Part shown: positions 154 to 33,210 of the stretch, in pieces | How the letters are laid out: the number at the start of each line of letters is the position of its first letter | How positions within the stretch are numbered: the first letter of the stretch is position 1 | Assembly: GCA_012026655.1 (NCBI GenBank) | Contig: JAAILG010000264.1 | Coordinates: 1-64,000 of the forward strand | Direction of reading: 5' to 3' | Length of the DNA: 64,000 nt | Origin: Hydrolagus affinis | Taxonomy: Eukaryota | Position numbers and translations under genes: made by a program | Notes under the pieces: generated by a model | Seen by the model: the letters and a program-made list of their open reading frames with translations, nothing else | Databases searched by the model: none | Told to the model about the DNA's origin: nothing

Positions 154-328
154 GTTATTGGCAACTGTACAGCTATTGTAATCTTCAACAAAAAGAACGC
201 AAGACCGTACACAAATGTAAACTGCAACATACGTAAAAAATACCAGAAAGAGACTGCGAGGAAAGATCTTCAGTTTTACCTCAAGATGATAAAGAAAACG
301 ACACCAGCATTTGTGAAACATATTCCTG
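154..328 (+). CDS. RARRES1: RARRES1/latexin-family exon (fourth from last)
   Basis: cactag|GTT...CCTG|gtatga; VIGNCTAIVIFNKKNARPYTNVNCNIRKKYQKETARKDLQFYLKMIKKTTPAFVKHIP; 175 nt, ends phase 1. Confidence 0.85.
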
Positions 329-504
329 GTATGAAGTTTCAACTTTAATGTGTCATTTAACAGTAAACAACGTTAACCTTTCAGCATGCTTTAAAGTTAC
401 AATAATAAGGGAGCATTTTTGCGCAATTAAATTATTTCAAACGCCTAAGATAATTTTAAAGCTTGTTTTATTTTAAACCTGCCTTTTCTTCTTCCCCATC
501 TCAG

Positions 505-641
505 ATAACTTTGGAATGATAGATCCCAAAATTATGCCATTCTGGCACTTGGCAAGGATTGCTGCCAGTTACATCATGTGGGAAAAGTCCACTGAAAACT
601 TAGCCTTCAACATGGGCCGTTTACAGAAAATGAACCAACTG
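505..641 (+). CDS. RARRES1: RARRES1/latexin-family exon (third from last)
   Basis: tctcag|AT...CTG|gtgagc; DNFGMIDPKIMPFWHLARIAASYIMWEKSTENLAFNMGRLQKMNQL; 137 nt. Confidence 0.9.
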
Positions 642-990
642 GTGAGCAACATTTAACACTAATAATAATAATAGCAACAGCCTTTTGTTCCTTTTGCTTT
701 CCAATTCTTTCATATCATTAATATAACAACATTTCACGTCAGGAGGACGTCTAAGACACTGTGTCAAACCCGAGCTGGGATGGGGATGGAACAGGGGGGG
801 ATTAGGAAATGCCGATGGGATAATCGAAGAAGAGAATTTTGAGACCAGACTTGAAGGAGGCCAGGGAGGAGGTGAGGCGGAGGGACTGCGGGATGGAGTT
901 CCAGAAGTTGGGGGCAGAGTGGCTAAAGGCTAATATATAAAGGTTATATATTAATATAACTAATTGAACAATGACTTTTGATCTGTTCAG

Positions 991-1053
991 AACAGGCATG
1001 AAAAATACCTTAATTTCGCTTTTGTTGTTCTTCTGCACGAGATACCGACACAG
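991..1053 (+). CDS. RARRES1: RARRES1/latexin-family penultimate exon
   Basis: gttcag|AAC...CAG|gtaaat; NRHEKYLNFAFVVLLHEIPTQ; 63 nt. Confidence 0.88.
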
Positions 1054-1155
1054 GTAAATTAATCCAATTCTAGCGGCCACAGAATTGCCTTTGAAGATAA
1101 TCAATTTACTTTTCCATCATCAATTACCTGCCAGTAATACATTCTTTCTGAATAG

Positions 1156-1317
1156 GAAATAATCACTTGCTATGTTGGCGTGAACTGGTATCCAAACCTA
1201 CCACTCAATCCGAAATACCATTGTGTGCCTTTGTCTCAACAAGCAAATATCGTCGAAGGGTCTGGAGTTGCAATGATCGAAGGGTCAACTATGGAAGAAG
1301 GATCTGCTATGAACTGA
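1156..1317 (+). CDS. RARRES1: RARRES1/latexin-family last coding exon
   Basis: gaatag|GAA...TGA; EIITCYVGVNWYPNLPLNPKYHCVPLSQQANIVEGSGVAMIEGSTMEEGSAMN*; AATAAA at 1490 and 1586. Confidence 0.88.
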   Translation, partial: EIITCYVGVNWYPNLPLNPKYHCVPLSQQANIVEGSGVAMIEGSTMEEGSAMN

Positions 1318-1950
1318 GCATTAGCCACACATGAAACGTCAGTGATGCAAAATGCATATTACAATTGTAGCAAAAAATAACTCAAATTTCTCAAAAGGAC
1401 TTTACTAAAATGATACAATTGAATGCAAACTCCCAGCTAACACAGCTACTTCAAATGTGGTCTATAAAAGTTGCAGAGTACCATTATAAAATAAATAGCT
1501 AACTACAGCAATGTCAGCGATTACTAAAACCACTAACATTCTCAACACACGTGCTGTATTATTGAACGTTTTATTGCTAACCATCAATAAAGAAATGCAT
1601 TAAAATTACATTTATTGTATTGCAAGTACAATTCTATAAACATTCTCTGAAAAACAGAAGTTTTGAGTTGCCACACTCGAGTATATTTTTCTCTAATCGC
1701 TGCATGTGGAGGATCAATTATAGACAACGAATGCTTCACGCATTCAAGACTGCATCTCTTACTAAAAAGCAGATGAATCTATAAACATTTTATGCAAATA
1801 ATGTCATCAAAATTCCTTTAAAATTTGGCCCATGAGTTGGCCAGAGAATGAGCCTTTGCCTTGCGTGGCTGGCAATACAGTACAGGATCAAATGAAAGGA
1901 AAGCACGAATGGTATATATATATATATATATATATAGATACACACACACA

Positions 1951-2952
1951 CAGTAAAAGCTTGTTTATCCGTGACCTAATCAATCATAACTTCCGTATAA
2001 CCGGCACTTCAAAAAAAAAGGTCCCCATTCGAATAACCAGATCTTATCCAGCACAATTGCGGAGGCACATTGAATGAGTCGATTGTCGCACGAGAGTACA
2101 GTACGATTAGTTCTGAATGCTACCGGTAGTGGCACTTCTGGTTTTTCTTCTTAGAGCCACACANNNNNNNNNNNNNNNNNNNNNNNNNNNNNNNNNNNNN
2201 NNNNNNNNNNNNNNNNNNNNNNNNNNNNNNNNNNNNNNNNNNNNNNNNNNNNNNNNNNNNNNNNNNNNNNNNNNNNNNNNNNNNNNNNNNNNNNNNNNNN
2301 NNNNNNNNNNNNNNNNNNNNNNNNNNNNNNNNNNNNNNNNNNNNNNTGTTGCCTGACTCTATCGTGGGTTTATACATTTGTTTTGGTGGGGTGGGAGTAG
2401 GAGAGAGAGGTAGGGAGAGAGAGGGTGGTGGGGGAGGAAGAAAGGGAAAGAGGGGGGGGGGGAGAGAAAGAGAGAGGAAGAGAGGAGTGGGAGGGCGAGA
2501 GAGAGATGGGGGAGAGGAGGGGAGAGGGGGTGAGTTGATTCATTTAGATGGAAAATGAGAGGAGTGGAGAGGGGTTGGGTTTGGAGCCATTGAGATGCCA
2601 GACTGACGGAGTGTGTGTGAGAAAGAGAGAGAGAGGGAAGGAGGGAGAGAAAGGAAGAAAAAAGAGAGGAAAAAATGACAGTATCGCTCTAAGCCAATAC
2701 AGTCCGCCATTGTAGAATTTTGCTTTGTGATTTGTGCTGTGTTTATAGACTCTAATCGATATTTATTGCTGTATTGATAAGTATCCATACAGTATTCTGT
2801 TATTATTTAGTCTATTATTAATATGGTATGTTTAAAAAAAAAGCCATTTTTTTTGTGTTGGGTTTTCGGCAGCTTGCTGCCCAAATATCCGGCATTCCAT
2901 TTAACCGGCATTGGCCAGGTCCCGAGGGTGCTGGATAAACGGGCTTTTATTG
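1951..2952. mobile_element. Non-autonomous Tc1/mariner-pogo (Tigger-like) MITE, family A copy 1; contains an assembly gap
   Basis: TIRs CAGTAAAAGCTTGTTTATCC ... GGATAAACGGGCTTTTATTG followed by TA; inserted in a (TA)n(CA)n microsatellite. Confidence 0.8.
2164..2346. other. Assembly gap (183 N)
   Basis: Run of N inside MITE copy 1. Confidence 0.99.
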
Positions 2953-3567: not shown

Positions 3568-3650
3568 GGGACAGGGGCGGATATGGTTTCTCTGAAGGCA
3601 ACTTTTGGTTTTCCCATTACACACGGGCAATTGTATTCTCTCTCGAGTCT
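3568..3650 (-). CDS. GFM1: GFM1 exon 13
   Basis: [27 protein letters not shown](P)|gtaagt; 83 nt. Confidence 0.96.
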
Positions 3651-4364
3651 CTGAATGTTAAATAAATTACATCATTTTTAAACACAAATTAAGGAAAGTT
3701 TACAACAGATACTTTCATAACACTGAACAAATGAAGATGTACTCAACCAAAGCCAATTGATCTGGATAAAGCATATCCTTGGAAAAGAATGCTTAATAAC
3801 ACTGAGCTGGATTCAATGTTGGTGTCCTGTACCAGAACTTAGTGACTTTTGTTGTCCCTAAGTATCCGTAGATAACCACAGCAAAATTGATCTACTTTTT
3901 GTTTGCAAACCAAACAAATGTTCAATTACCATTCAAAACGAAAAAAAAAGTGGGTCGCTACAAAGAGAACGTATATATAGTGAACATTGCTATCAAATGT
4001 TGCACTCAGTCATGGTGATTGGCAGATGTTGGATGCTTTAACTGAAAAAAGACATTTCCTTCTCCAACTTGGAAATGAAAATAAATTAGTACTGCAAGTT
4101 TGATAGCATTTCTGTGCATGAAACTTATCAGTGATAAAAATGCGGTTCCCTTATACCGATCATTTAAAATGAAATAAACAGATGCTTTCACATCACTGGT
4201 CTGAAATCATACTATACAATAAGCCTATATATACCATATATATCTCAAATCAAAAGGTATTTAAAACTCCTGAAACACTGAAATAGTTAATACATAAAGT
4301 TCAGTAATCAAATTGCAACAAATTCAGACTAAAGAGTAAAAGAATAAAAGACTGAATATGGTAC

Positions 4365-4502
4365 CTGGGCATAAATTTCCAAGTGCAATTCTCCCATTCC
4401 AGATACAATCGTCTCTCTGCTCTCTGGGTCATAAAATATTCTAAACGTGGGATCCTCTCTTGTAAATCTACCAATTCCTTTGGAAAATTTATCCAAATCA
4501 TT
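4365..4502 (-). CDS. GFM1: GFM1 exon 12
   Basis: [46 protein letters not shown]. Confidence 0.97.
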
Positions 4503-5196
4503 CTGAAACAGAATAGAACATACATTTACGTTTTGTTTATTTCTGATCCACATTTTCTGTCATTTGGAGATATTAAACCAGGGTGGTCCAACAACAACTT
4601 GTATTTATATTCACATTACAGTATATTCTGTGAAGCGCTTTGAGACGTCTGGAAGATGTGAAAAGCGCAATATCAAATGGAAGGATTATTATTATTATAT
4701 AGCACCTGATGACATCTCGGACTCGCACGCTGCTTTTACTGATGTTTGCTGACGGCCCCTTAAATAATGTTGTTGTAGTTTCTCTTCCGGAAACATGACC
4801 CATAAGAATCACATAGAAATCCTATGTTTTAAATTGTGTCCAATTGTGCTGTTACCCATCTATCTTCAAACACTTGTTACCTATCTATCTCAATCACTTT
4901 TTGATTTGGTACTGACTTTGGCTTCGTAATCAAAAGGTCATCGTGAAACAATAACACTTTCTATTGTTTTAAAAATTAAATCATTAATGCTCCTAACCCG
5001 TAATGTTGCTTGCAACATGGTAAACCATAATACAATAATACTTGATACAATGTCTTATCATGTCATTCAGACATCTCAAAACTCTTCGCAGGACGTACTG
5101 TGGCGTAGCAAAGGGTAGCACTTTGTGGGCAAAAACAATAACATAGAATGTCGAGGAAAGAAGACTCTTTTTAGAAAGGATCTGTCCATGACTTAC

Positions 5197-5253
5197 CTTG
5201 TCGGTAGGTTTTATGGATACTGATATCACAGGCTCAGGCACATGAATAGATTC
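5197..5253 (-). CDS. GFM1: GFM1 exon 11
   Basis: ESIHVPEPVISVSIKPTDK|gtaagt. Confidence 0.95.
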
Positions 5254-5929
5254 CTGGACGGTGGAAAAAAAGGAAAGACAAATAGCTTAAATATCAACCC
5301 AAGCCATTCCAGAAGTTATTCGAAGACTGGCAAATATTGTAAGTTTTCTTTATTGTGCCTCAGAAACATAGAAATGAGGTTCTCACCAATTTACTGCCGA
5401 TCTATCAAAGTAACTAACATTTAAAAATACAGTGGCTTAAAAGAATCAAATCAATGTAAAGTACAATTTGGTATGCTATCCATGTGGTGTTCTCCTGTCA
5501 ATCAGTGACCTTGTTCGTTTTCATGGAGTAAGTTTAACACTCTTTTGCAGTGTAAGTTTAACAGCAGTTGAAACAGCTGTGAGTCAATAAAGATAGCAAT
5601 TCTCTAAGAGTTACCAATTATTATCGCTTTTCAAATGCAAGCAATTTTCCATCTGGCTGTTGCTGCTGATAAGAGGTGTAACAATTAAATTTAATTTTAA
5701 TTAAATACTGATTTGCACAAATCAATTTGACTTTGATTTAAAAAGTTGTACCATAACAAAAACAAGTCATGTATTTTCATTTTCTCCTATCTGGCTTACG
5801 ATTGAAAATTAACTGGTAAACGTGGATGATAATTACTGTTTACCGCTGCAACAATGTGTTGGTTTGCAATATCAGGACATGGTTAGTGCCTATGATTCTT
5901 CCCAAGATCAAATTCAGGAGGCTAACACA

Positions 5930-6223
5930 GGAGTCCTGTAGCTCATTGGTTAGAGCACTCGCCTTCCAAGCGAGAGACCTGGGTTCAATTCCAGGCCATG
6001 GTGAAACCTTGGGCAAGTTTCCTTACTTCACACGCCTAATAATAATTCCTCAAACAAAACAATACTAAATTGGTCATTTCAATCCACGACTGTTTATGGG
6101 ACACTGCTATGTGCAATTGGCTACCATGTTTCACCCACAAATATACACTCAATTCACTTTACAGTATATTCTGTGAAGCGCTTTGAGACATCTAGAAGAC
6201 GTGAAATGCCAGGATTATTATTA
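5930..6223 (+). mobile_element. tRNA-derived Deu-domain SINE, near full length
   Basis: A box TAGCTCATTGG, B box GGTTCAATTCC, Deu-like GTGCAATTGGCT core, L2-like tail and (ATT)n. Confidence 0.85.
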
Positions 6224-7277
6224 GAGGTACCACATGGAGACAAAGATGGAAATTAGTTTCCTCTTATACACGTTCCTAACAATAATAATCCTTGCATTTG
6301 ATATGTCATGTCTTTGAGAGCGCAGACGTGATAAAGTGTAACAGCTTTAATATACAAATTGACCAAAAATAAACAACATTCCGAAGGAAAAACTGAGTCA
6401 AAAAAGTCACAAAGGTGCAAGGTTTGATCTCTGTTCTGTGCTCAACACATGCTGATATTTTAGCAGCAGCGTCACCTGGACTCTTAGCTAATCCTCATGG
6501 AAGCTGTTGCTTCATGCATTTATTTTTCTCCGCTCCACTTGCTGTCGCAAATTTCCGAACATAAAGTTCCTGCTGTTAGTAAAATTCACCTCATCGTTTA
6601 CAACTGCTTCGGGGCATTTTCATTCTGAACAAACGTTAAAGAACTGGAGTCAACTATGAAGAACGAGAGATTACTTCCCTCCATGACATTTTATGGCTCT
6701 AACTGGTAATTTGCAGATGGAATTCCTGTAATCCTCACAATTCCAATGTAGCTCTAATAATCTGCTGAATAGCATTTAATTTTCAGATACTTTCCCCCCC
6801 CCCCCACCCCCTCAAATGGCCCACCCACCTCTTGAGACAGGCTAAGGATTGCAGGTTTTTCTGTCAATTTTGTGCGGGAACAAGGACATGGACTCCGGCA
6901 GACGGAAGGGAAAGATGAAAGCAGTTTGGATTTTATTATTTTACACAGAGATGAATACGTGGAATAGACTAACCATGGAGGCAGTGGAGTCAGGCTTTTT
7001 AATGTTATTTTCCAGCCAGATAGACTGCAATGTTATTTTATGGTCTGTTGCTGTTCCCATTTCTTATGAATCATTTTATGTTTTACATGCCTGTGAAATT
7101 CTTGCTGTATAAATGTATGCAAGTCTCTACTTTATCCTCCCTCAAAACCAGTTGTGCCTGGCTTATTATTCTTGCTTGATTAGGAATGAAGTCAAAACAG
7201 CCAATATCTTTTTTTTTAAAAGTATTTTTGTTATTTTTATTATCATGAATGTTCTTATGCAATGTGTTTTTCCTTAC

Positions 7278-7379
7278 CATTGATAGGTGGGTGAGGGCTT
7301 TAGCAGTAAATGTGTCACCACTTGCACAATCAATCCCAAACAAAGCACAGATATCACCAGCATAGACTTCCTCAACATC
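7278..7379 (-). CDS. GFM1: GFM1 exon 10
   Basis: [34 protein letters not shown]. Confidence 0.96.
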
Positions 7380-8202
7380 CTGTAATGAAAAAATGCAAGA
7401 AATACAAGCTGTTATATCAACAAAGTTAATAGACTTAACCATTTTCAAACCTATCTCCTCCTTCAAAAAATACTCTCAGTGAACCCACTAGAAGTGGATT
7501 GAAAAGCCAATTGATTCTAATTAACTAGTTAATCTCCATTTCCCCAAATAATTTACCAGTGCAGCAAATCAAACTAAACGACATTCAAAATAAAATGCTG
7601 TTTATAGAAATAATAAGCATAATTCTTGTATTTGATACAGTGCCTTATTACATCATTGAGACGTCTCAAAGCGCTTCACACAATATACTGTAAAGTGAAT
7701 TGACTGTGTATATTTTGCGGATACAACATGGCGGCCAATTGTGCACAGACGTACTCCACAAACAATCGTGGATTCATAAAATACAGCAAATACAAAACTC
7801 TCAATAAATCAAATGATTAACTGGTGATAAACTCACATACATGTCAAGTACGACACAAAAAAACCCTCTAATGACAATGTTGGACTGACCAAGAGTTTTT
7901 AAAACACACTGATGGTCTTCCAGTACAAGTTAAAATCAGAATTGTTTATTCAATGTTGGGACTGATAAGTGGTCACTTTGACAGCTGGTCTCTCCACATT
8001 TGGCAGCTGAGACAGATTTAATTGTGGTGAACAGTGAGTTTTCAATGTAATGTGGCATTTGGGAGCCACACAGAAACAACATCGTACAGAGGGTAAAACA
8101 TAAGGTCAAACAGCTATGGAGTTCCCATTTTTTATCTGTGTGTGTGTGTGTGCATGTGATCAAATAGCAATGCAGTGTCATCAAAAATACGGAAGCTAAA
8201 TA

Positions 8203-8800
8203 CAGTAAAAGCCTGTTTATCCGGCACCATCGGGACCTGGCCAATGTCGGTTAAACCGCATGCTGCACATTCGGGTGGCCAGCTACCGAGAACCCAACAC
8301 AAAAAAAATTAACTTTGGAAAAATTACTTTTTTTTAAACATACCATATTAATAAAACTAAATAACAGTATTATTGTACGGATACTTACCAATAAAGCAAC
8401 AAATATTGATTACAGTCCACAAGCACAACACACAATCAAAGGGGTACTCTCGTTTTTTTCCTTTCTTTCTCTCTCTCTCTTTCACACATACACACTCAGT
8501 CAGTCTGGCATCTCAATGGTTCCAAACCCAACCCCCCACTCCACTCCTCTCATTTTCCATCTAAATTAATCGACTCACCCCCTCTCTCTCTTCCCCCTCC
8601 TCTCCCCACCTCTCTCTCCCACTCCTCTCTCTTTCTCCCCCACCCCCCTTCCCTCTCTTTCTTTCTCTCTCTTTCTCCCCCACCCCCCCACTCTTTCCCT
8701 CTCTCTGTTGTGATTGTGAATCGAATGGAGACCTTTTTTTGAGGTGCTGGTTATACGGAAGTTACAGTTGATCAGGTCACAGATAAACGGGCTTTTACTA
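8203..8800. mobile_element. MITE family A copy 2 (inverted relative to copy 1)
   Basis: TA|CAGTAAAAGCCTGTTTATCC ... GATAAACGGGCTTTTACTA|TA; interior complementary to about 2520-2950. Confidence 0.82.
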
Positions 8801-9397
8801 TAGTATCTACATGTACAGTGTTACATATGTTGCATTCCACACTTACATGTAGATCATATATGAGGCTTTCCTTTGTTACAATTTTAATTTTATATTATAG
8901 CTGAATCAAATATAATTCTAAATTTGAGAAAGTCAACTAAATATTTAGCTTATAAAAATTCCAGAATTGTAGATGAGTTATTGTAAATAATAGCTATACC
9001 TATAGTAACATAACAGCCCGCAAAACTCAAAATCACCGCACTTCACAGTAAAACTCTGTGAAGTGTCGAGTACATGCTAAAGTGCTACAATTAAATGCAA
9101 GGATTATTATTATTATTATTTATTATTATGTTAGGCTACACCCGGGTCATTAACTTTGTATTCATTCTTTTGAATATTTTATAAAATCAAAGAAAATGGA
9201 CCACGCTGGAAATGAAAACAGAGATGGTGGGAGTCCACAGTGGGCTAATTAGCATCCAAAAGGGAAAATGGAATACTTACTCAAAGGGAGGAAATAAACA
9301 GTAATAAAATAGACAAGCATAGTGGGGGGGGGGGGTAAAATTTCAGTCATGTCAGGAATAAAGTTATAGAGAGGATTCAAAGAAAATTAAAGCCAAT

Positions 9398-9770
9398 ACA
9401 ACAACAAAATTACATGTATAGAGCGCCTTTCGCGTCTGGAGAACGTCCCAAGGCAATGAACCCGAACAAGGGAGAAAGGCAGGGTAGGGAGGTGGGGCAG
9501 GAGAGAGTTAGAAGGGGAGGGAGAGAGTTGGGAGGGCTGCAGAAGGCATGGTCGAAGAGGAGTGTCTTGAGACCACCCTTGAAGGAGGTGAGAGACGGAG
9601 TGACGTGAAGGACTGTGGATGAAGTTCCAGAGTGTGAGGGCAGAGAGGCTAAAAGCCCATCCGCCGATGGTAGGGCGGATTGGGTGGGGGACATGGAGCA
9701 GGTCAGAGCCCGCTGAACGGAGGAGACGGGGAGGTTCACAGGGGGGCAGCACGTCGGAGAGGTAGGGGAA
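9398..9770 (-). mobile_element. L2 LINE 3' fragment
   Basis: LRSAGS.LL.VP...TIGG.AFS..A..LWN and SFKGGLKTLLF remnants, L2 tail. Confidence 0.8.
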
Positions 9771-10321
9771 ATCCAGAAAGCTGAAAAGATAAAATAGTGC
9801 TTCCAGAAGTTGCTTTGGGTTTCATTTGAATACCATACGAGGCCAAGGAGAACATCTCTTGGACAGACCCAGGGAGTGGGATTGACTTTGAATAGCTCTT
9901 TTCAAAGCTAAGAGCTATTTTTAGACACGATGGGCCTCCTTTTGTGCTGCAAAATTCTATGCTCAACAATAACTTGCTTTTGTATTGCGTCCTCCATGCC
10001 AGGCAGAGTCTCAGAGTGCTTCAGAATGGCGGATCCCAAGGCCGAGCCAGGGGGAGCAAGAACAGAATGTTTTGGGTTACCTTCACAGATTAAACCAAGC
10101 TGTTTGGCAAAGCAACACCCCGATCCTTTTGTTTTTTTCTTTTGCCTTTTTCTTTTATGTTGGGTTTTGCATTTTGTCCAGAAATAATTACACAATAAAA
10201 CAAAATGTGAATTTGGAATTGGATGGGTCAATTCCAAGACAAAAAGATCCATCTATCAAAATGTGTGCAGTGGGCGGTGGTGGTGGAAAAGATATGAAGT
10301 GCGAACAGCAAAAAGCCATAC

Positions 10322-10459
10322 CTCCATTTGATCGGAATTCATTCGGACCAAACGCTGGACTCTGATCTTCTTTGCAGTTCGTGTGTTGTAGATATATTCA
10401 CTCTTTTTAAGCATACCCTGATATACTCGAATGTACGTTAACTGCCCGAATCGGCCAGC
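10322..10459 (-). CDS. GFM1: GFM1 exon 9
   Basis: [46 protein letters not shown]. Confidence 0.95.
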
Positions 10460-11080
10460 CTGACAAACGCAAAGGAAGAACGATTAGCAAATGGCAATCT
10501 GTTTCACCTCTATCTCCACTGATTTCAAAGTACGGCTGCTAAAATATTTATTCACAATACGTCATAGAAGATCATCGAGGGTAGTTGTGGGCATTTTACT
10601 CTAAATGTGGTATTTATAGTAAGTGCAAATTAACAAATAACTTCAGAGTTGAGCTGCAAAGAAATGCTGCACTTGTTTTAAAAATCTAAGACAGATTACA
10701 TGGGAATCCTCAGGACATTCAGATGAGGATTCCGATGTCCAACCCACTCAACGATGGCATCCTGCCTTAAAATGCTAAATAAAAAACCCTGCATTTCTAT
10801 ATGTTAGATCACTCACATGATAACACATGGACGGTGTTGCCAACCCACTGTTGGCTGAGCACCCAGCCACTCATCTTAAAAGAATGGCTTATTCTACATT
10901 AACACAACATCACTGTCAGACAAGGCCAGGTCTTTGAGAGATGCACAGCATGTTTTTGGAAAGGATGGAGGTTGTCAGTTCAACATTTATAATTCCAACA
11001 AGCTATCCTAATGGTGCTTCTTGGATTTCCACGTGTAAAATCTATGCGCAAATCGATTGTATGTTCAGTTATAGAAGTAC

Positions 11081-11165
11081 CTCTAATTTAAAAGCCAGGC
11101 CAACAAAGGGTTGAGAGCCATCTCTTGTGGAGTCCATAATAATTCGGTTTATATCTTCAGAATTC
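11081..11165 (-). CDS. GFM1: GFM1 exon 8
   Basis: NSEDINRIIMDSTRDGSQPFVGLAFKLE. Confidence 0.93.
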
Positions 11166-11814
11166 CTAAGATAAATAACATGTCACACATTTTGGTGGGT
11201 TCTAGATCCAAAATACAGTCAATTCATCTTACAGTATATTTTGTGAAGCGCTTTGAGATGCTTCAAAAACACACTAAGGCGTAATATCAAATTCAAGGTT
11301 TATTATTATTATTAACACGATTCATGTAAAAATATAAACCCAAACATTCCTTTTTAAACTTTAAACAAAATACAGTTTGCAGTGTGCTGAGTTATTGTTA
11401 GAAAAGTCTCTTTAGACTAAATATTAGATTGGTAACCGTAAAAAGATCAACAAGCTCCTCGTTTTATTAAATTAAATAAATTACAGATGATCGGACACTT
11501 GTAGAAAAGACAGGCACAAAAAACAATATCACAAATAATTTTCTAACTTTGCAAACTTGGCTGATGATGAATGAATGCCTTTTGACTTATTTGATCACAT
11601 TCTTACAATATCAAATCATATTATCTTCTCATGGTCTAGTAGACTTGTTTTGAATGAGTATCTCAGCCAATATTTAACTGTGAAAGTTTTGTGATTTAAA
11701 AAAAGGATTCCTTTATGATACCACCGAGAATAAAAACAGAAAGAATGTGTACAAAAAGACAATGATCAGCTCGTTACTAATCCAGAGTAATAATGATGGA
11801 AACAAAACACTTAC

Positions 11815-11969
11815 TCGTGATTATGTAGAGCATAATTTGAGACTTCACTTGGGTTTGGTAAATAGTCCAAAATGGCATCTAGCAATGGCTGTACTCCCTT
11901 GTTTTTCAATGCACTTCCTACTAACACAGGTGAGAATAACCTGCTGATAGTTGTCCTCCTTATAGCAGC
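11815..11969 (-). CDS. GFM1: GFM1 exon 7
   Basis: [51 protein letters not shown]; G5 motif GSALKNKG. Confidence 0.95.
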
Positions 11970-12538
11970 CTAGAAGGAAAATAATTATTTTAGAATCCAT
12001 TCATATGGTCAATTTATCTTAATAAAACAGTTGGCATTTTCTAGTGGAACAATCTGTTTTGGTCAAAACAATACACGACAAAGAAGATATGGCACCCATC
12101 AATTTTGGTTCACTTGGAAGAATGGAACGTATACAGAATCCAATATAAGAAAAGATGTTAGTTACAGCTTTAAACTATCCAAGGTTACTGTATGTAAATC
12201 GTATTATACGTGAAAAATTTGGTGTTACTCACATTAACACTTATCCTTAAATTAATACTCAAATTTTTTTTAAATTGCCATTTCAATTCACGACTGTTTG
12301 TGGGACACTGCTGTGCACAATTGGCTGTCGTTTTTCGCCCATAAATATACACTCAATTCACTTTAGTATGTTCTGTGAAGCACTTTCAGACATTTAGAGG
12401 ATGTAAAAAAGTGCTATATCAAATGCAAGGATTATTATTAGTATTATTATTATCCTATTTAACTTCTACTTAAGCAAACTGGAGTACCATAGAAATTAAA
12501 TCATATTGGGGAATAGAACTCGTGAAATGAACACACAC

Positions 12539-12689
12539 CTTTAGGTCAGTAACTGTGGGGATTTTCTCTTCCAGAAACATCTCTCCCAGCTGTTCATCCA
12601 CATTCGCTACACACTCTACAAGCTCCTGACGTCGGTCAGCAGCCTCTGCTCGCAGCTCAGCAGGAATGTCCGCATAGTTCACATCCTGA
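12539..12689 (-). CDS. GFM1: GFM1 exon 6
   Basis: [50 protein letters not shown]. Confidence 0.95.
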
Positions 12690-12805
12690 CTGAAGGAGAT
12701 TATTTATTTTATGAACATTTCCAATCACGCAATACATTTGGTGTTGAAAAAGCCAAGCAGCTGAACAATATTCTATCAATTCGGTGATAAACTAAATTCT
12801 TTCTC

Positions 12806-13014
12806 AAAAACAGAAGTGGCTGGGAACACTCAGCAGATCAGGCAGCATCTATGGAGAAAGGAAAAGTGAGTCACTGTTTCTGATGAAGAGTCATGGTCCC
12901 AAAACGTTGACTCACTTTTCCTTTCTCCATAGATGCTGCCAGATCTACTGAGTGTCCCCAGGAATTTCTGTTCATGTTTCAGATTTCCTCGTGATCTGCA
13001 GTATTTTGTGTTTT
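12806..13014 (+). mobile_element. Penelope-type palindromic retroelement remnant with degenerate hammerhead core
   Basis: Perfect 33-bp inverted arms 12841-12873 / 12908-12940 around CTGATGA-AGAGTC-ATG-GTCCC-AAAACGTT; flanking TCTTTCTC direct repeat. Confidence 0.6.
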
Positions 13015-13591
13015 AAAAAAAATCTTTCTCACTCCATTTTATTTTACAATGCCGTCTTCAAGAAAACAGCAGGTAAAGTATTACATTGGTGCTATGATCC
13101 AGAAGGCAAATAAAGTGAAAAGTAGAATACAGTAAAAGGTAATGTAAGGTATGGAGAAAATCCCATATTAAAACTTAAGATGGTGCGTAAGGGACTCAAT
13201 ATGGTCTCAAGCAATTAAAGAGGTTGTCCGCATTACTTTATCTTTGTAACAGCTGATATTCAATTAATAATCAAACCTTCTCATTTTTAGAATAAAATTT
13301 AGAAACGGAAACCAGTGAAGGGGAATTTGTTGGAACACTTAACAGACATAAGAAGACTTGGTAAGATATACATTATTAATCTGGTCTAAGAATTGGGAGC
13401 ATTCCCATAATAAATATTATAGTTTGGAATATTCTTACATTTAACCTGTGCTAGATTTCTCAACTATTTAAACAAGAACAAATTACATTTGTATAGTGCC
13501 TTTCACGTCAGGAGGACATGCCAAAAATCTCATCGTGTTTGTATGGAAATCAGGAAGATGCTCAGCACATTTGAATAATAATGCTGCTTAC

Positions 13592-13708
13592 CCAAACTGG
13601 CCTTCAAAATAAATAGCCCGTTCCTCAATGAGATCAATAATTCCTTTAACATTTCCTTCCAAACCAATTGGAATTTGAATGTATGCTGTGTTGTAATTCA
13701 ATTTTGAC
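13592..13708 (-). CDS. GFM1: GFM1 exon 5
   Basis: [39 protein letters not shown]. Confidence 0.95.
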
Positions 13709-14244
13709 CTGCAATAGTAAGACATTGAACATTTGGTTCTGAGGACAGAGATCGAAAGCATTTTGAAATGAAATTCTAATTGTTTATCATCTCATAATTT
13801 GGAATTACTCCCCATGGTGTTGTATCCCCTTGGTGTGCAGTTGTTTTTTTCACACACACACACACACTTATTACACACATTATAGAGGTCTTAGTCTGCC
13901 CTCGGGTGGCAGTAACTAAGCACTGCAAGATCGTTGCGTTGCAGCTTTGAGTCCAGTAGTCCACGAGATATTTTCATTCCTGGGAGAATTTAGGGTCATG
14001 ACAGACTTTGTGTTTGACACGATTCAACTTTTTACTCATTACCCACACAGAGCATCCCCTCCTCACCCAGAGAAATGTTCCCTGAACTGCACTCACTTAT
14101 TGCCACCTTGTCCATTCTCTCCTGCCTGTGCAACAGGTTCTGTTATGAGTTTGTAAGTCTGGCAAATTAATCCTGTATTAAGGTTAATCTTATGCCCCCT
14201 AAAACCACACTTTGGCTGCGCAAATTCCTAATAAACCTTGCGTA

Positions 14245-14565
14245 TAATAATAATAATCCTTGATTTGACATAGTGCTTTTCACATCTTCTAAACGTCTCA
14301 AAGCGCTTCACAGAATGTACTATATAGTGAATTGACTGTATATTTGTGGGTGAAATGCGGCAGCCAATTGCGCACAGCAATGTCCCACAAACAGTTGTGG
14401 ATTGAAATGACCAATTTTATTATTGTTTTTTTTTTGGGGGGGGATTATTATTAGGCGTGTGGAGTAAGGAAACTTGCCCAAGATTTTGCCCTGATCTGTC
14501 TGGATTCAAACACAGGTCTTACGCTTGTAAGGCGAGTGTTCCAACCATGCGCTACAGGACTCCAC
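14245..14565 (-). mobile_element. tRNA-derived Deu-domain SINE, full length
   Basis: Same consensus in reverse: GTGGAGTCCTGTAGC head through to (ATT)n tail. Confidence 0.88.
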
Positions 14566-14794
14566 AGTGTATAGAGTGATGCAGCCGCTCATCACGTCTT
14601 ACGATAACGATGTGATGGCTGGCTAATGTCACAGGAGGTTAAGTGCCAACACGGTTCAGTCTGATTCCTGAAACACAGGATTCTAACCACATTCACATTA
14701 ACCTCTCATCATTGGAAATATAGATTGAAACACCACTCGTCAAAATTGTGCATTCAGAGCAATTAACCGTGTAAGTCCAGAGGCCAGCACAAAC

Positions 14795-14999
14795 CTTAAT
14801 TGTTGAAGAGCTCGGTTAGGGTCAGCTCCCAGCCTGTCCAGTTTGTTTATAAAGGTAAGAAATGGCACATTGTAGCGCTTCATTTGTCTGGTTACTGTCA
14901 TTGTCTGACACTGGACTCCACCAACTGAGCACAAAACCAAAACAGCTCCATCTAAGACTCTCAAGGAACGCTCAACCTCGATTGTGAAATCCACATGAC
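14795..14999 (-). CDS. GFM1: GFM1 exon 4
   Basis: [69 protein letters not shown]. Confidence 0.97.
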
Positions 15000-15509
15000 C
15001 TGAGTGAATAGCAAACACGCACAAGCACATCAATCAACAAGGAAGGAGACATGCAAGATATAGTTTATGTTCCAATAAGCCCAGAAAAACACAAGCAGGA
15101 AAAAAATATTGATGAGATACGTGCTGTTACTTCTGTAAACACCAAACCAAATTGGTCATTTGTGTCTGCTGAGAGGGAAGAACTAAGACAGTTTCGGCAA
15201 CCAGCAAATTCACACATGAATAATACTAATAATAATCGTTGCATTTTATTTAGCGCTTTTCACATCTTCTAGACGTCTCAAAGTGCTTCACAGAATGTAC
15301 TGTAAAGTGAATTGACTATATTTGTGGGTGCAAAGTGGTTTGGTGTTTACAGAAGTAATAGCATGTATCTCATCAATATTTTCCTGCTTGCGCACAGCAG
15401 TGTCCCAAGAAAGGAAAGTTATCACCCTTAATATGAGCCTTCTGCTCAAATTGTGCTAATAGTTCATCTCAGGCATTTAGTGAGTCTTAAACCTGGTTTT
15501 GATAGTTAC

Positions 15510-15642
15510 CTGGAGTATCAATGATATTAATATTATTTTCCTTCCATTCAGTGTACGTGGCTGCTGACTGGATAGTAATACCTCTCTGTCGTTCTAGTTC
15601 CATTGAGTCCATAATGGCACCCACTCCATCCTTTCCTTTCAC
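15510..15642 (-). CDS. GFM1: GFM1 exon 3
   Basis: [44 protein letters not shown]. Confidence 0.96.
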
Positions 15643-15828
15643 CTGTCGATTGGGATTAAAACTTTAATATTAGGAGACAACGTACAGAGATCAACTGTTC
15701 AAGAGATAGTCTTTCTTAATGCCGTATAGATGAACTTTTCTGGATGTTCATCAAATTCACTTTATATACAACAATCTTTCTCTGTCTCCTTACCCTCCCA
15801 CCCCAATAAATAAAAAAAAACACTGAAC

Positions 15829-15981
15829 CTCATGCATTTGTGTTATTCTTCCTGAGTAGTACAAAATTCTTTCTGTAAGCGTGGTTTTCCCAGAGTCTAT
15901 ATGTGCAGAGATTCCTATATTCCGAATCCTCTCGTTTGGTAGTATTCCAGAAGAACACCGTCGACAGCTGTTTAGAAGGAT
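15829..15981 (-). CDS. GFM1: GFM1 exon 2
   Basis: [51 protein letters not shown]; G1 P-loop. Confidence 0.96.
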
Positions 15982-16235
15982 CTGTAAGAAAATATTGAAG
16001 AAATTCTGTTCACTGTTTCAGTTTATAATGAACGTTCCTCGGTTGTTTCACATGTGTTCCAAACCACTTTGGCTTCATAGTTATTCTGTCTTTTAAGGAT
16101 TTATGATCTGAAAGGCTAAATTTCAGGTATAAAGTCGATCAGATAGCTTAAGTCACTTTTCTCCAAACTACTAACCCTCCCCTCCTGCCCTCCCCACCCC
16201 ACCCCCAACCCCAGCCAGTGGTTATTACAAGGAGT

Positions 16236-16540
16236 AATAATAATTTTTAAAACTTGCATTTGATATAGAGCTTTTCACGTCTAGACGTCTCTCACTGAAC
16301 ACACTGTAAAGTGAATTGACTGTATATTTGTGGGTGCAGCGCGCCAGCCAATTGCGCACAGCAGTGACCCACAAACAGTCGTGGATTGAAAACGATCAAT
16401 TTTATTATTGTGTTTTTTTTGGGGAGGGATTATTATTAGGCGTGTGGAGTAAGGAAACTTGCCCTGGGTTTGGCCCTGACCTGACCTGACCTGCCTGGAT
16501 TCCAACACAGGTCTGTCTCACTTGTCAGGCGAGTGCTCCA
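16236..16540 (-). mobile_element. Same SINE family
   Basis: Consensus match, head slightly truncated. Confidence 0.82.
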
Positions 16541-16576
16541 GGAGCTGTCTCCAGGACATGACATTTGCTCACAGGG

Positions 16577-16676
16577 NNNNNNNNNNNNNNNNNNNNNNNN
16601 NNNNNNNNNNNNNNNNNNNNNNNNNNNNNNNNNNNNNNNNNNNNNNNNNNNNNNNNNNNNNNNNNNNNNNNNNNNN
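16577..16676. other. Assembly gap (100 N)
   Basis: Run of N in GFM1 intron 1. Confidence 0.99.
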
Positions 16677-16739
16677 CCACACACACACACACACACACCC
16701 TCCTCCCCGACCATCTTACCCTCCCCCCCCACCCACACT

Positions 16740-17160
16740 CCACCCCGGGGGGGGGGGGGGGAGGGACCAGTAGTTGGCCCACGGGCCGGGAAGGGCTGTC
16801 AGGGGCCGGGTCGGTGTGGGGGTGAGAGACGTCTCTTACCCGCCTGATGTTGAACGGAGCCGCCGGGCTGCCGGCCAACAGCGCGGACACTTTAAACAGG
16901 TGCATTTTGCGGCGGTGCCGGTGCTCCGGGAGGGCAGTGACGGGGGGGTGGTCTCGTGGCTCAAACTCCGCGGGTTGAGTCGCCGGGAGACACGGGGGAA
17001 GGTCAAAGCTACAAACCCGCCCCGGATGATGATCATCCATCCACCCGCCCACTGCCGCCGCCGCCGCCAACCACCCCCCCCTGCTGGCCGGAGGGCAACA
17101 TAACATCCCAACACTCCCCACTGATCACTCACTCTAGCCCTCTCCACCTCCGCCCTGGCT
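16740..17160. promoter_or_regulatory. CpG island / GFM1 promoter and first exon
   Basis: Abrupt GC- and CpG-rich stretch around the GFM1 ATG in AT-rich surroundings. Confidence 0.75.
16840..16905 (-). CDS. GFM1: GFM1 exon 1 (mitochondrial presequence)
   Basis: ATG...MHLFKVSALLAGSPAAPFNIRR|gtaag in a CpG island; phase 0 fits exon 2. Confidence 0.8.
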
Positions 17161-26781: not shown

Positions 26782-26914
26782 CCTGCGATCATCATTGAAA
26801 GATGAGCCTGGTTCCAGTTGTCTGTTTTTACCAAAAAATTGATCGAGTTGAAAGCCATCTGAAAAATGTCTCATCATCTTATTCATGTGCTCTTGATGTG
26901 CATGGAATGGCTCC
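26782..26914 (-). CDS. MLF1: MLF1 exon 2
   Basis: EPFHAHQEHMNKMMRHFSDGFQLDQFFGKNRQLEPGSSFNDDRR|gtatg. Confidence 0.9.
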
Positions 26915-29859: not shown

Positions 29860-30480
29860 CCTGAAGAACGGATCGTCCTCAAAATCGCGAAACATGTTGT
29901 TGAACATCTCACTCAAACCGGCCTCAGTCACTCGACTCCTCAACTCCAACGGTTCAGCGCGAGCGACGACCCCAGGCTCTGACACTAACTCTGCCCCCTC
30001 CCCCTCCCGGCTGTTCTGTTCCATCTCCCCCTCCCCCCTCTCTTCCCCCCGCCGCCACGCGCGGTAACCAACGGCAACGCGTCCCAGGCGCCGATTCTGA
30101 TTGGACTCCTTTCGGTCACGTGCCGAGTGTTTGTTGTGGTTTCAAGCCTCACAACAGCGGCGCGCGTCACTATGACAACAAGCGCAGGCCAGCAGGATAA
30201 TGTCGCGTTACGTCACGCCAACGGCACAACCCGCCCGCCCACCCGCTCAAAGCCAACGGTTGGTTCAACAACAACAACAACAACCACCACACAATGACAC
30301 TTGTGCAGGCAGCGAGTGAAGAGGGAGGAATTGGGAAGTTCGACAAGTTGGTGTAGTTCGAGCCTGGATTCACCCGGGGAATTTGAATTTTGAAACTCAA
30401 AAGGCAGGCGGCCCGCCAAGCCACTCCTCCATCACAAGAGTGCGCTTTGGGGGGGTAACCGCCGGAAGAAAAAAAAACAC
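29860..30480. promoter_or_regulatory. CpG island / MLF1 promoter with RFX X-boxes, MYB sites, CCAAT, E-box and CRE-like motifs
   Basis: GTAACCAACGGCAAC 30064-30078, GTCACTATGACAAC 30166-30179, four CCAACGG, GATTGG near 30100, GTCACGTG near 30115, TTACGTCA near 30208. Confidence 0.75.
29861..29907 (-). CDS. MLF1: MLF1 exon 1
   Basis: MFNNMFRDFEDDPFF-AG|gtaag; 47 nt. Confidence 0.93.
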
Positions 30481-33103: not shown

Positions 33104-33210
33104 CTTTTTTGTATCTTTATTTGATCGGAATGTGTGCTGAACAAAGGAATCACTTTCAATAGCTTCGATATCTTTCACTCGCTTTACCTGTTCTTCAATA
33201 GTAGTTTGTT
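33104..33210 (-). CDS. RSRC1: RSRC1 exon (third from last)
   Basis: (E)[35 protein letters not shown]. Confidence 0.95.

Follow-up and report, generated by a model that had tools for sequence, protein, structure and literature searches.

The window analysed here is a stretch of 64,000 nt of Hydrolagus affinis DNA (positions 1 to 64,000 of contig JAAILG010000264.1, C264 below), which begins at base 1 of its contig, in a fragmented assembly of 1.11 Gb and 245,464 contigs. Its left end carries, on the plus strand, the last four of the six exons of a latexin-family gene, followed on the minus strand by exons 1–13 of the host gene GFM1, encoding mitochondrial elongation factor G1 (3568–16905, identified by TIGR00484 matches and exon mapping). 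The four plus-strand exons, which the earlier note had placed past GFM1 exon 13, are borne out by their AG/GT ends, by collinear matches to the PF06907 (LXN) profile and by RNA junctions. Exon 3 (154–328; PF06907 positions 65–121, E = 2.4e-10), with splice sites and RNA junctions to exon 2 and to base 505, encodes the end of cystatin domain 1, Cys99, Cys118 and the first part of the IPDxxG linker. Exon 4 (505–641; PF06907 123–167, E = 3.6e-14; RNA junctions) encodes the linker and the helix of cystatin domain 2, with 77% identity to the Callorhinchus protein P0001, and exon 5 (991–1053; PF06907 169–188, E = 1.3e-3; RNA junctions) the LLHE-PTQ loop. The coding part of exon 6 (1156–1317), identified by a PF06907 match (189–214, E = 0.03), alignment, motif count and RNA, holds Cys224, Cys242, an acidic tail with one E-G-S-G motif, and the stop codon TGA.

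The first two exons are located on the minus strand of a second contig, C23506, where exon 1 (C23506:2464–2676) was found via a PF06907 profile search of the genome contigs, and exon 2 (C23506:893–961) encodes 23 aa and has no PF06907 match by itself. Five of the six exons match PF06907 in order, exons 1, 3 and 4 above the cut-off individually, and this profile match along the length places the gene in the latexin family, listed as MEROPS I47 (PMC9363672).

GFM1 exons 14–18 were located on the plus strand of the second contig (C23506:4784–6766), which is the contig of exons 1 and 2 of the latexin-family gene, on the opposite strand. GFM1 exon 13 (3568–3650, minus strand, 83 nt), the donor of which opens the host intron, joins in phase 2 to C23506:4784 to give a continuous EF-G frame, and in the EF-G profile it is flanked by exon 12 (positions 417–461) and exon 14 (positions 489–542). 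Over the two contigs, the 18 GFM1 exons form one intact 745-codon frame, and 17/17 introns are GT-AG. On the side of the latexin-family gene, 535 reads of RNA run X2 have a loose end before base 154 that is identical to the final 30 nt of exon 2 (agreement 1.0). Because GFM1 and the latexin-family gene break at the same gap, the latter is nested antisense in GFM1 intron 13, and this nesting across the contig gap is real. The same arrangement had been proposed in the earlier note, and it is upheld by the GFM1 frame across the contigs and by the exon 2–exon 3 splice in RNA; extension to the left also located the missing exons of both genes beyond the window. The RNA bridge between exons 2 and 3 and the in-frame read-through of GFM1 led us to reject misassembly.

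In human, RARRES1 lies outside the GFM1 3′ end, between GFM1 and MFSD1, and the chimaera gene does not have this position, being inside intron 13. Its location, antisense in GFM1 intron 13, is that of an LXN orthologue, human LXN being placed in this same intron (10.1101/212191), with RARRES1 described as adjoining LXN (PMC3641360).

Two runs of N in the window (2164–2346 and 16577–16676) fall within GFM1 introns, clear of the exons discussed here, and a fragment of a very high-copy repeat is present in intron 4 of the latexin-family gene (about 750–960), where X1 depth is in the millions. Three exon-like pieces on the minus strand (26782–26914, about 29860–29940 and 33104–33210) had no match in Pfam; they are probably exons of MLF1 and RSRC1, in which case the gene order would be as in human.

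Transcription and copy number

The RNA evidence consists of two stranded poly(A) runs (X2 and X3), with the junctions from exon 2 through exon 6 covered. The three junctions within the window were crossed by 670/107, 608/81 and 528/70 reads (X2/X3), which together with the exon 2–exon 3 splice confirmed the exon structure in RNA-seq. First mates were nearly all on the minus strand, which indicates plus-strand RNA in a usual stranded library, and the reads of both runs show few differences from the window sequence inside exons. The 3′ UTR (1318–1700, plus strand) is transcribed to at least base 1700 and contains AATAAA at 1490 and 1586, with RNA depth dropping past base 1500 from ~1000 to ~270 and coverage persisting to the end of the examined stretch (base 1700). 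The latexin-family gene is real, intact and expressed.

Minor splice forms were a 641 to 743 junction, with a stop after three codons (16 reads in X2), in-frame skipping of exon 5 (10 and 4 reads), and a 641 to 996 junction leading to an early stop (4 and 1 reads). In the 3′ UTR at base 1500, X1 has a 27-nt insertion compared to the window, and a similar loose end was present in 262 X2 reads.

When the genome was searched with PF06907, 4 of 8 candidates matched and none was a second family member: two of these matches lie in the window, a third on C23506 (E = 0.001), and the fourth is noise. All 4 matches among 5 candidates with the caecilian RARRES1 protein P0008 were to the intronic gene, as was one of the 3 matches among 5 candidates with the coelacanth LXN protein P0209, the other two having E >1. 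Searching with 34 family proteins by tblastn gave no other copy elsewhere in the window or on C23506, and no family exon is located in the 4.7 kb that follow the GFM1 stop on the latter contig. The contigs C126259 and C170827 (E = 1.6 and 5.0) were taken as noise, as was C62985 (E = 3.6), where six-frame inspection showed no family exon. The suggestion that an extra RARRES1 duplicate occupies the intron was not borne out, as the three genome searches gave this gene alone. A second copy could be missed, since the assembly is fragmented and the searches score the best candidates only (8, 5 and 5), and the results are good but not final evidence that the intronic gene, the sole latexin-family gene found in the chimaera genome, is single. 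This result agrees with Kordis and Turk 2009, in whose survey Chondrichthyes are scored as latexin present and TIG1 absent (PMC2784779).

The encoded protein and its known relatives

The six exons comprise 819 nt and encode 272 aa. Exon 1 encodes a short hydrophobic N-terminal stretch (11-residue Kyte-Doolittle value of 2.78 from residue 6), answering the question raised earlier of a signal peptide or transmembrane segment with a predicted signal peptide, based on hydropathy and on the naming of the orthologue as a precursor in RefSeq. The core cysteines are Cys99, Cys118, Cys224 and Cys242, the paired conservation of which points to two putative disulfides (99–118 and 224–242), and there are three N-glycosylation sequons (at 24, 27 and 98). 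The AlphaFold model of the 74%-identical Callorhinchus orthologue P0001 (pLDDT 87.4) has tandem cystatin-like domains, and with Foldseek it matches latexin structures 2bo9_B (E = 4e-19, rmsd 2.4 Å) and 1WNH (E = 2e-18, rmsd 2.3 Å). The chimaera protein is predicted to be a secreted, disulfide-bonded protein with two cystatin domains, and by analogy we infer that it is likely an inhibitor of extracellular A/B-type zinc carboxypeptidases: ovocalyxin-32 is reported to inhibit bovine carboxypeptidase (PMC9363672, PMC8144736), and inhibition of CPA4 by latexin is the title of PDB 2BO9.

The acidic Ser-Gly tail may bear glycosaminoglycan, as its single E-G-S-G motif fits the E/D-G/A-S-G rule for attachment, such motifs alone being described as ambiguous (PMC8418075). 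Human RARRES1 is reported in the same source to be a chondroitin sulfate carrier, with attachment at residue 40 and not in the tail. In three sharks (P0003, P0047 and P0231) the tail consists of tandem repeats with 5, 10 and 12 E/D-G/A-S-G motifs, compared to one in the chimaera, and these could represent glycosaminoglycan attachment arrays.

The direct orthologue is the Callorhinchus milii latexin precursor NP_001279868.1 (74% identity over 271 aa), which shares the N-terminus, the four core cysteines and the tail, and differs in the IPDxxG linker, where it has Gly in place of the Asp kept in our query. Databases give this orthologue both family names, 'latexin precursor' in RefSeq, and 'Retinoic acid receptor responder' (K4G0E6) and 'Latexin' (A0A4W3JYA7) in UniProt, with no choice made between them. 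The chimaera gene is a new orthologue of an annotated RefSeq gene in a known family, and because that orthologue was already annotated, the interest lies in the evolutionary reading and in the naming, and not in a new system.

With latexin (LXN; PF06907; PDB 2BO9 and 1WNH) the chimaera gene shares the antisense position in GFM1 intron 13, the tandem cystatin fold and the IPDxxG linker. LXN-clade proteins differ in lacking Cys pair 2 (224–242) and the acidic tail, those of lobe-finned fish and tetrapods also lacking Cys pair 1 (99–118), and no signal peptide is predicted for human LXN in the account of PMC6435711. The LXN feature set (absence of a signal peptide, Trp for Cys224, absence of an acidic tail) is not found in the chimaera protein, which has that of RARRES1/TIG1/ovocalyxin-32, with the hydrophobic N-terminus, both Cys pairs, the LHE-PTQE loop and the acidic Ser-Gly tail. 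All of the RARRES1-hallmark motifs listed in the earlier note were recovered, and BLAST identity of the query is 43% to the coelacanth RARRES1-type protein and 40–42% to those of caecilians, compared to 29–37% for LXN-type proteins. The differences from RARRES1 are the intronic location, as opposed to one outside the GFM1 3′ end, and the absence of a grouping with RARRES1 in the best trees. Ray-finned latexins (sturgeon, gar, bichir and teleosts) resemble the chimaera protein in having a similar hydrophobic N-terminus and, in 6/8, Cys pair 1, and differ in that their N-terminal spacer is longer, an internal Met precedes the first helix, and both the tail and Cys pair 2 are missing.

Trees and the distribution of characters

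Homologue sampling consisted mainly of 50%-identity representatives (best 150 of 156 matches), a search with exon 4 only giving 1 protein among 1 candidate and a profile search of proteins 8 matches among 7994 scored. Tree 1 contains 34 rows, comprising the query and 33 near-full-length homologues chosen by hand, with hagfish as root; the selection excluded fragments, most birds, two frog models (P0056 and P0064) and hagfish P0234. Five of the 33 homologues are without a name, and there is no mammalian LXN row of known name in the trees. Tree 2 was restricted to the core of 27 rows, after dropping five unnamed or truncated rows, tegu and bichir B; of the four Cys columns, three were taken out and one, which lies outside the range, stayed in. 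The root is a single long branch (hagfish, 2.4 changes per column).

In both trees, a bony-vertebrate group of LXN and RARRES1 excludes the cartilaginous-fish genes (support 90/88 in tree 1 and 93/91 in tree 2), which makes it most likely that the chimaera gene is co-orthologous to both LXN and RARRES1. The chimaera gene falls with shark and skate proteins in species order, as sister to Callorhinchus (100/100), and lies outside the LXN clade, which comprises sequences of ray-finned fish, coelacanth and tetrapods and is supported by 100/100 in both trees; across cartilaginous fish, bony fish and tetrapods, the protein does not group with LXN. The RARRES1-type rows do not form one clade in either tree, and those of coelacanth and lungfish lean towards LXN (87/83 and 81/78). 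The AU tests give no firm rejection of the alternative topologies (p of 0.05–0.13), with values of 0.084 (tree 1) and 0.069 (tree 2) for cartilaginous fish with RARRES1, and of 0.125 (tree 1) and 0.049 (tree 2) for cartilaginous fish with LXN. The earlier description of the gene as RARRES1-like and not latexin-like is apt for its resemblance, as seen in the motifs, and probably wrong for its descent, going by both trees.

Characters were mapped on 34 rows, with a hydrophobic N-terminus defined as an 11-residue Kyte-Doolittle value of ≥1.9. Cys pair 2 is present in 6/6 cartilaginous-fish rows, 13/13 RARRES1-type rows and hagfish, and in 0/14 rows of the LXN clade, where the Cys224 column has Trp in 12 rows and Phe in one, with one row truncated. 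Cys pair 1 is present in 6/6 cartilaginous-fish, 13/13 RARRES1-type and 6/8 ray-finned LXN rows, and in none of the six lobe-finned or tetrapod LXN rows. Similarly, the hydrophobic N-terminus was detected in 6/6 cartilaginous-fish, 11/13 RARRES1-type and 7/8 ray-finned LXN rows, and in 1/6 of the lobe-finned and tetrapod LXN rows (a gecko model). Both Cys pair 2 and the PTQE loop are present in hagfish, whose two annotated isoforms lack Cys pair 1 and a hydrophobic N-terminus (maximum 0.85, P0229), so that predicted secretion can be traced no further back than jawed vertebrates on these sequences, with the hagfish isoforms giving no support for an older age. Since the 'RARRES1-like' hallmarks are common to outgroups or fish latexins, they look ancestral for jawed vertebrates, and are probably ancestral traits and not a mark of RARRES1 identity.

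In all seven ray-finned latexins with a hydrophobic N-terminus, an internal Met precedes the first helix by ≤20 residues, close to where LXN of coelacanth and Xenopus begins, and one isoform beginning at this Met is annotated in sturgeon. A Met in the same window was also present in six rows outside the LXN clade, the query not being one of these. The ray-finned pattern suggests that secretory features were lost stepwise.

Several individual sequences deserve mention. The gecko latexin-like protein P0076, a gene model of the LXN clade, is extended by a hydrophobic N-terminal stretch upstream of the Met at which latexin usually starts; provided that the model is correct, a signal peptide was retained or regained in some tetrapods, which counts against a clean single loss. 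Reedfish has two LXN-clade copies (P0070 and P0073, sisters with 100/100), one with and one without a hydrophobic N-terminus, which possibly reflects an independent split into secreted and signal-less forms. In the Leptobrachium protein P0064, which carries the label RARRES1, the first half is of RARRES1 type and the second of LXN type; the protein is either a chimeric gene model or the product of gene conversion between neighbours.

Family history and alternative readings

We consider it probable that the chimaera gene is an unduplicated co-orthologue of LXN and RARRES1, transcribed and spliced antisense in GFM1 intron 13 and likely encoding a secreted inhibitor, and are similarly inclined to believe that it predates the LXN/RARRES1 split. 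That cytosolic latexin is the derived form is very likely. The earlier note had put forward, as one of two options, that a secreted-type, cysteine-rich state persists in the intronic copy and that cytosolic latexin came later, and both the trees and the characters support this option.

From these patterns we infer an order of events, in which the jawed-vertebrate ancestor would have had one intronic gene encoding a protein with a signal peptide, an acidic Ser-Gly tail and two Cys pairs. On the bony-vertebrate stem this gene would then have been duplicated, with one copy coming to lie past the GFM1 3′ end, retaining the ancestral traits and giving rise to RARRES1/ovocalyxin-32. From the intronic copy, both the tail and Cys pair 2 would have disappeared, as in all LXN-clade sequences. 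Ray-finned latexins would have kept the hydrophobic N-terminus and mostly Cys pair 1, and in tetrapods and lobe-finned fish the start of translation would have moved to an internal Met, with the loss of pair 1, resulting in signal-less latexin. The complete scenario, with latexin starting as a secreted, disulfide-bonded, proteoglycan-like inhibitor in GFM1 which cartilaginous fish would still have, RARRES1 leaving the intron on the bony-vertebrate stem and the cytosolic form arising via a dual-start stage, has in our view an even chance of being correct. If true, it would explain why a mammalian protein described as having no signal peptide fits secreted carboxypeptidases, its best-known target CPA4 having such a peptide (PMC6435711), and it would argue that the core of RARRES1, the topology of which is presented as disputed in PMC3641360, faces the lumen or the cell exterior. 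Such a history also gives the family a direction, in which secretion is old, cytosolic latexin is derived and ray-finned latexins are intermediates. Our full-text literature searches brought up no statement of a secreted, intronic ancestor, and older papers on the family may discuss it.

Alternatively, the chimaera gene may be a true LXN orthologue which kept the ancestral traits, with duplication before the jawed-vertebrate split and RARRES1 lost or unassembled in cartilaginous fish. This would fit the LXN position of the gene, the NCBI label 'latexin' for the shark and skate orthologues, the scoring of Chondrichthyes in PMC2784779 and the AU p of 0.125 for the full set, but it requires an extra loss, the gene has no LXN-clade state such as Trp for Cys224, and the best trees place it outside the 100/100 LXN clade, with an AU p of 0.049 in the core-only set. 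We regard this as unlikely, and cytosolic latexin would still be derived if it were true.

A true RARRES1 orthologue, resulting from early duplication with loss of LXN in cartilaginous fish, and with the intron site either original or acquired by gene conversion, seems quite improbable. The traits that suggest it, which include every RARRES1 motif and the higher BLAST identity to RARRES1-type (40–43%) than to LXN-type proteins (29–37%), are at least partly ancestral, as hagfish has Cys pair 2 and PTQE, and ray-finned latexins have the N-terminus and pair 1. The AU values (0.084 and 0.069) and the UniProt name 'Retinoic acid receptor responder' of the Callorhinchus orthologue would agree with such an origin, but the grouping is absent from the best trees, and a loss plus a change of position are required.

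Finally, a lineage-specific extra RARRES1 duplicate in the intron, or nesting as an assembly artefact, could be suspected from the fragmented assembly and the contig break within the gene, but is highly improbable, as the searches with PF06907, RARRES1 P0008, LXN P0209 and tblastn found no second copy, the two genes are interrupted by one and the same gap and have complementary exons on its two sides, RNA joins exon 2 to exon 3 over this gap with GFM1 in frame, and the gene groups with shark and skate proteins in species order.

[quoted passage not shown] Since coelacanth carries both types (P0232, and P0209 as LXN) and the ray-finned genes belong to the LXN clade, the LXN/RARRES1 split must be at least as old as the ancestor of bony vertebrates, earlier than the published tetrapod date, and the RARRES1-type protein of lungfish, together with the coelacanth pair, argues for a split older than tetrapods. 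Le Roy et al. 2021 describe RARRES1 as conserved from fish to mammals, with zebrafish 'ltx' as the fish member (PMC8144736), whereas the ray-finned latexins in our trees, in which zebrafish itself is not among the rows, are members of the LXN clade.
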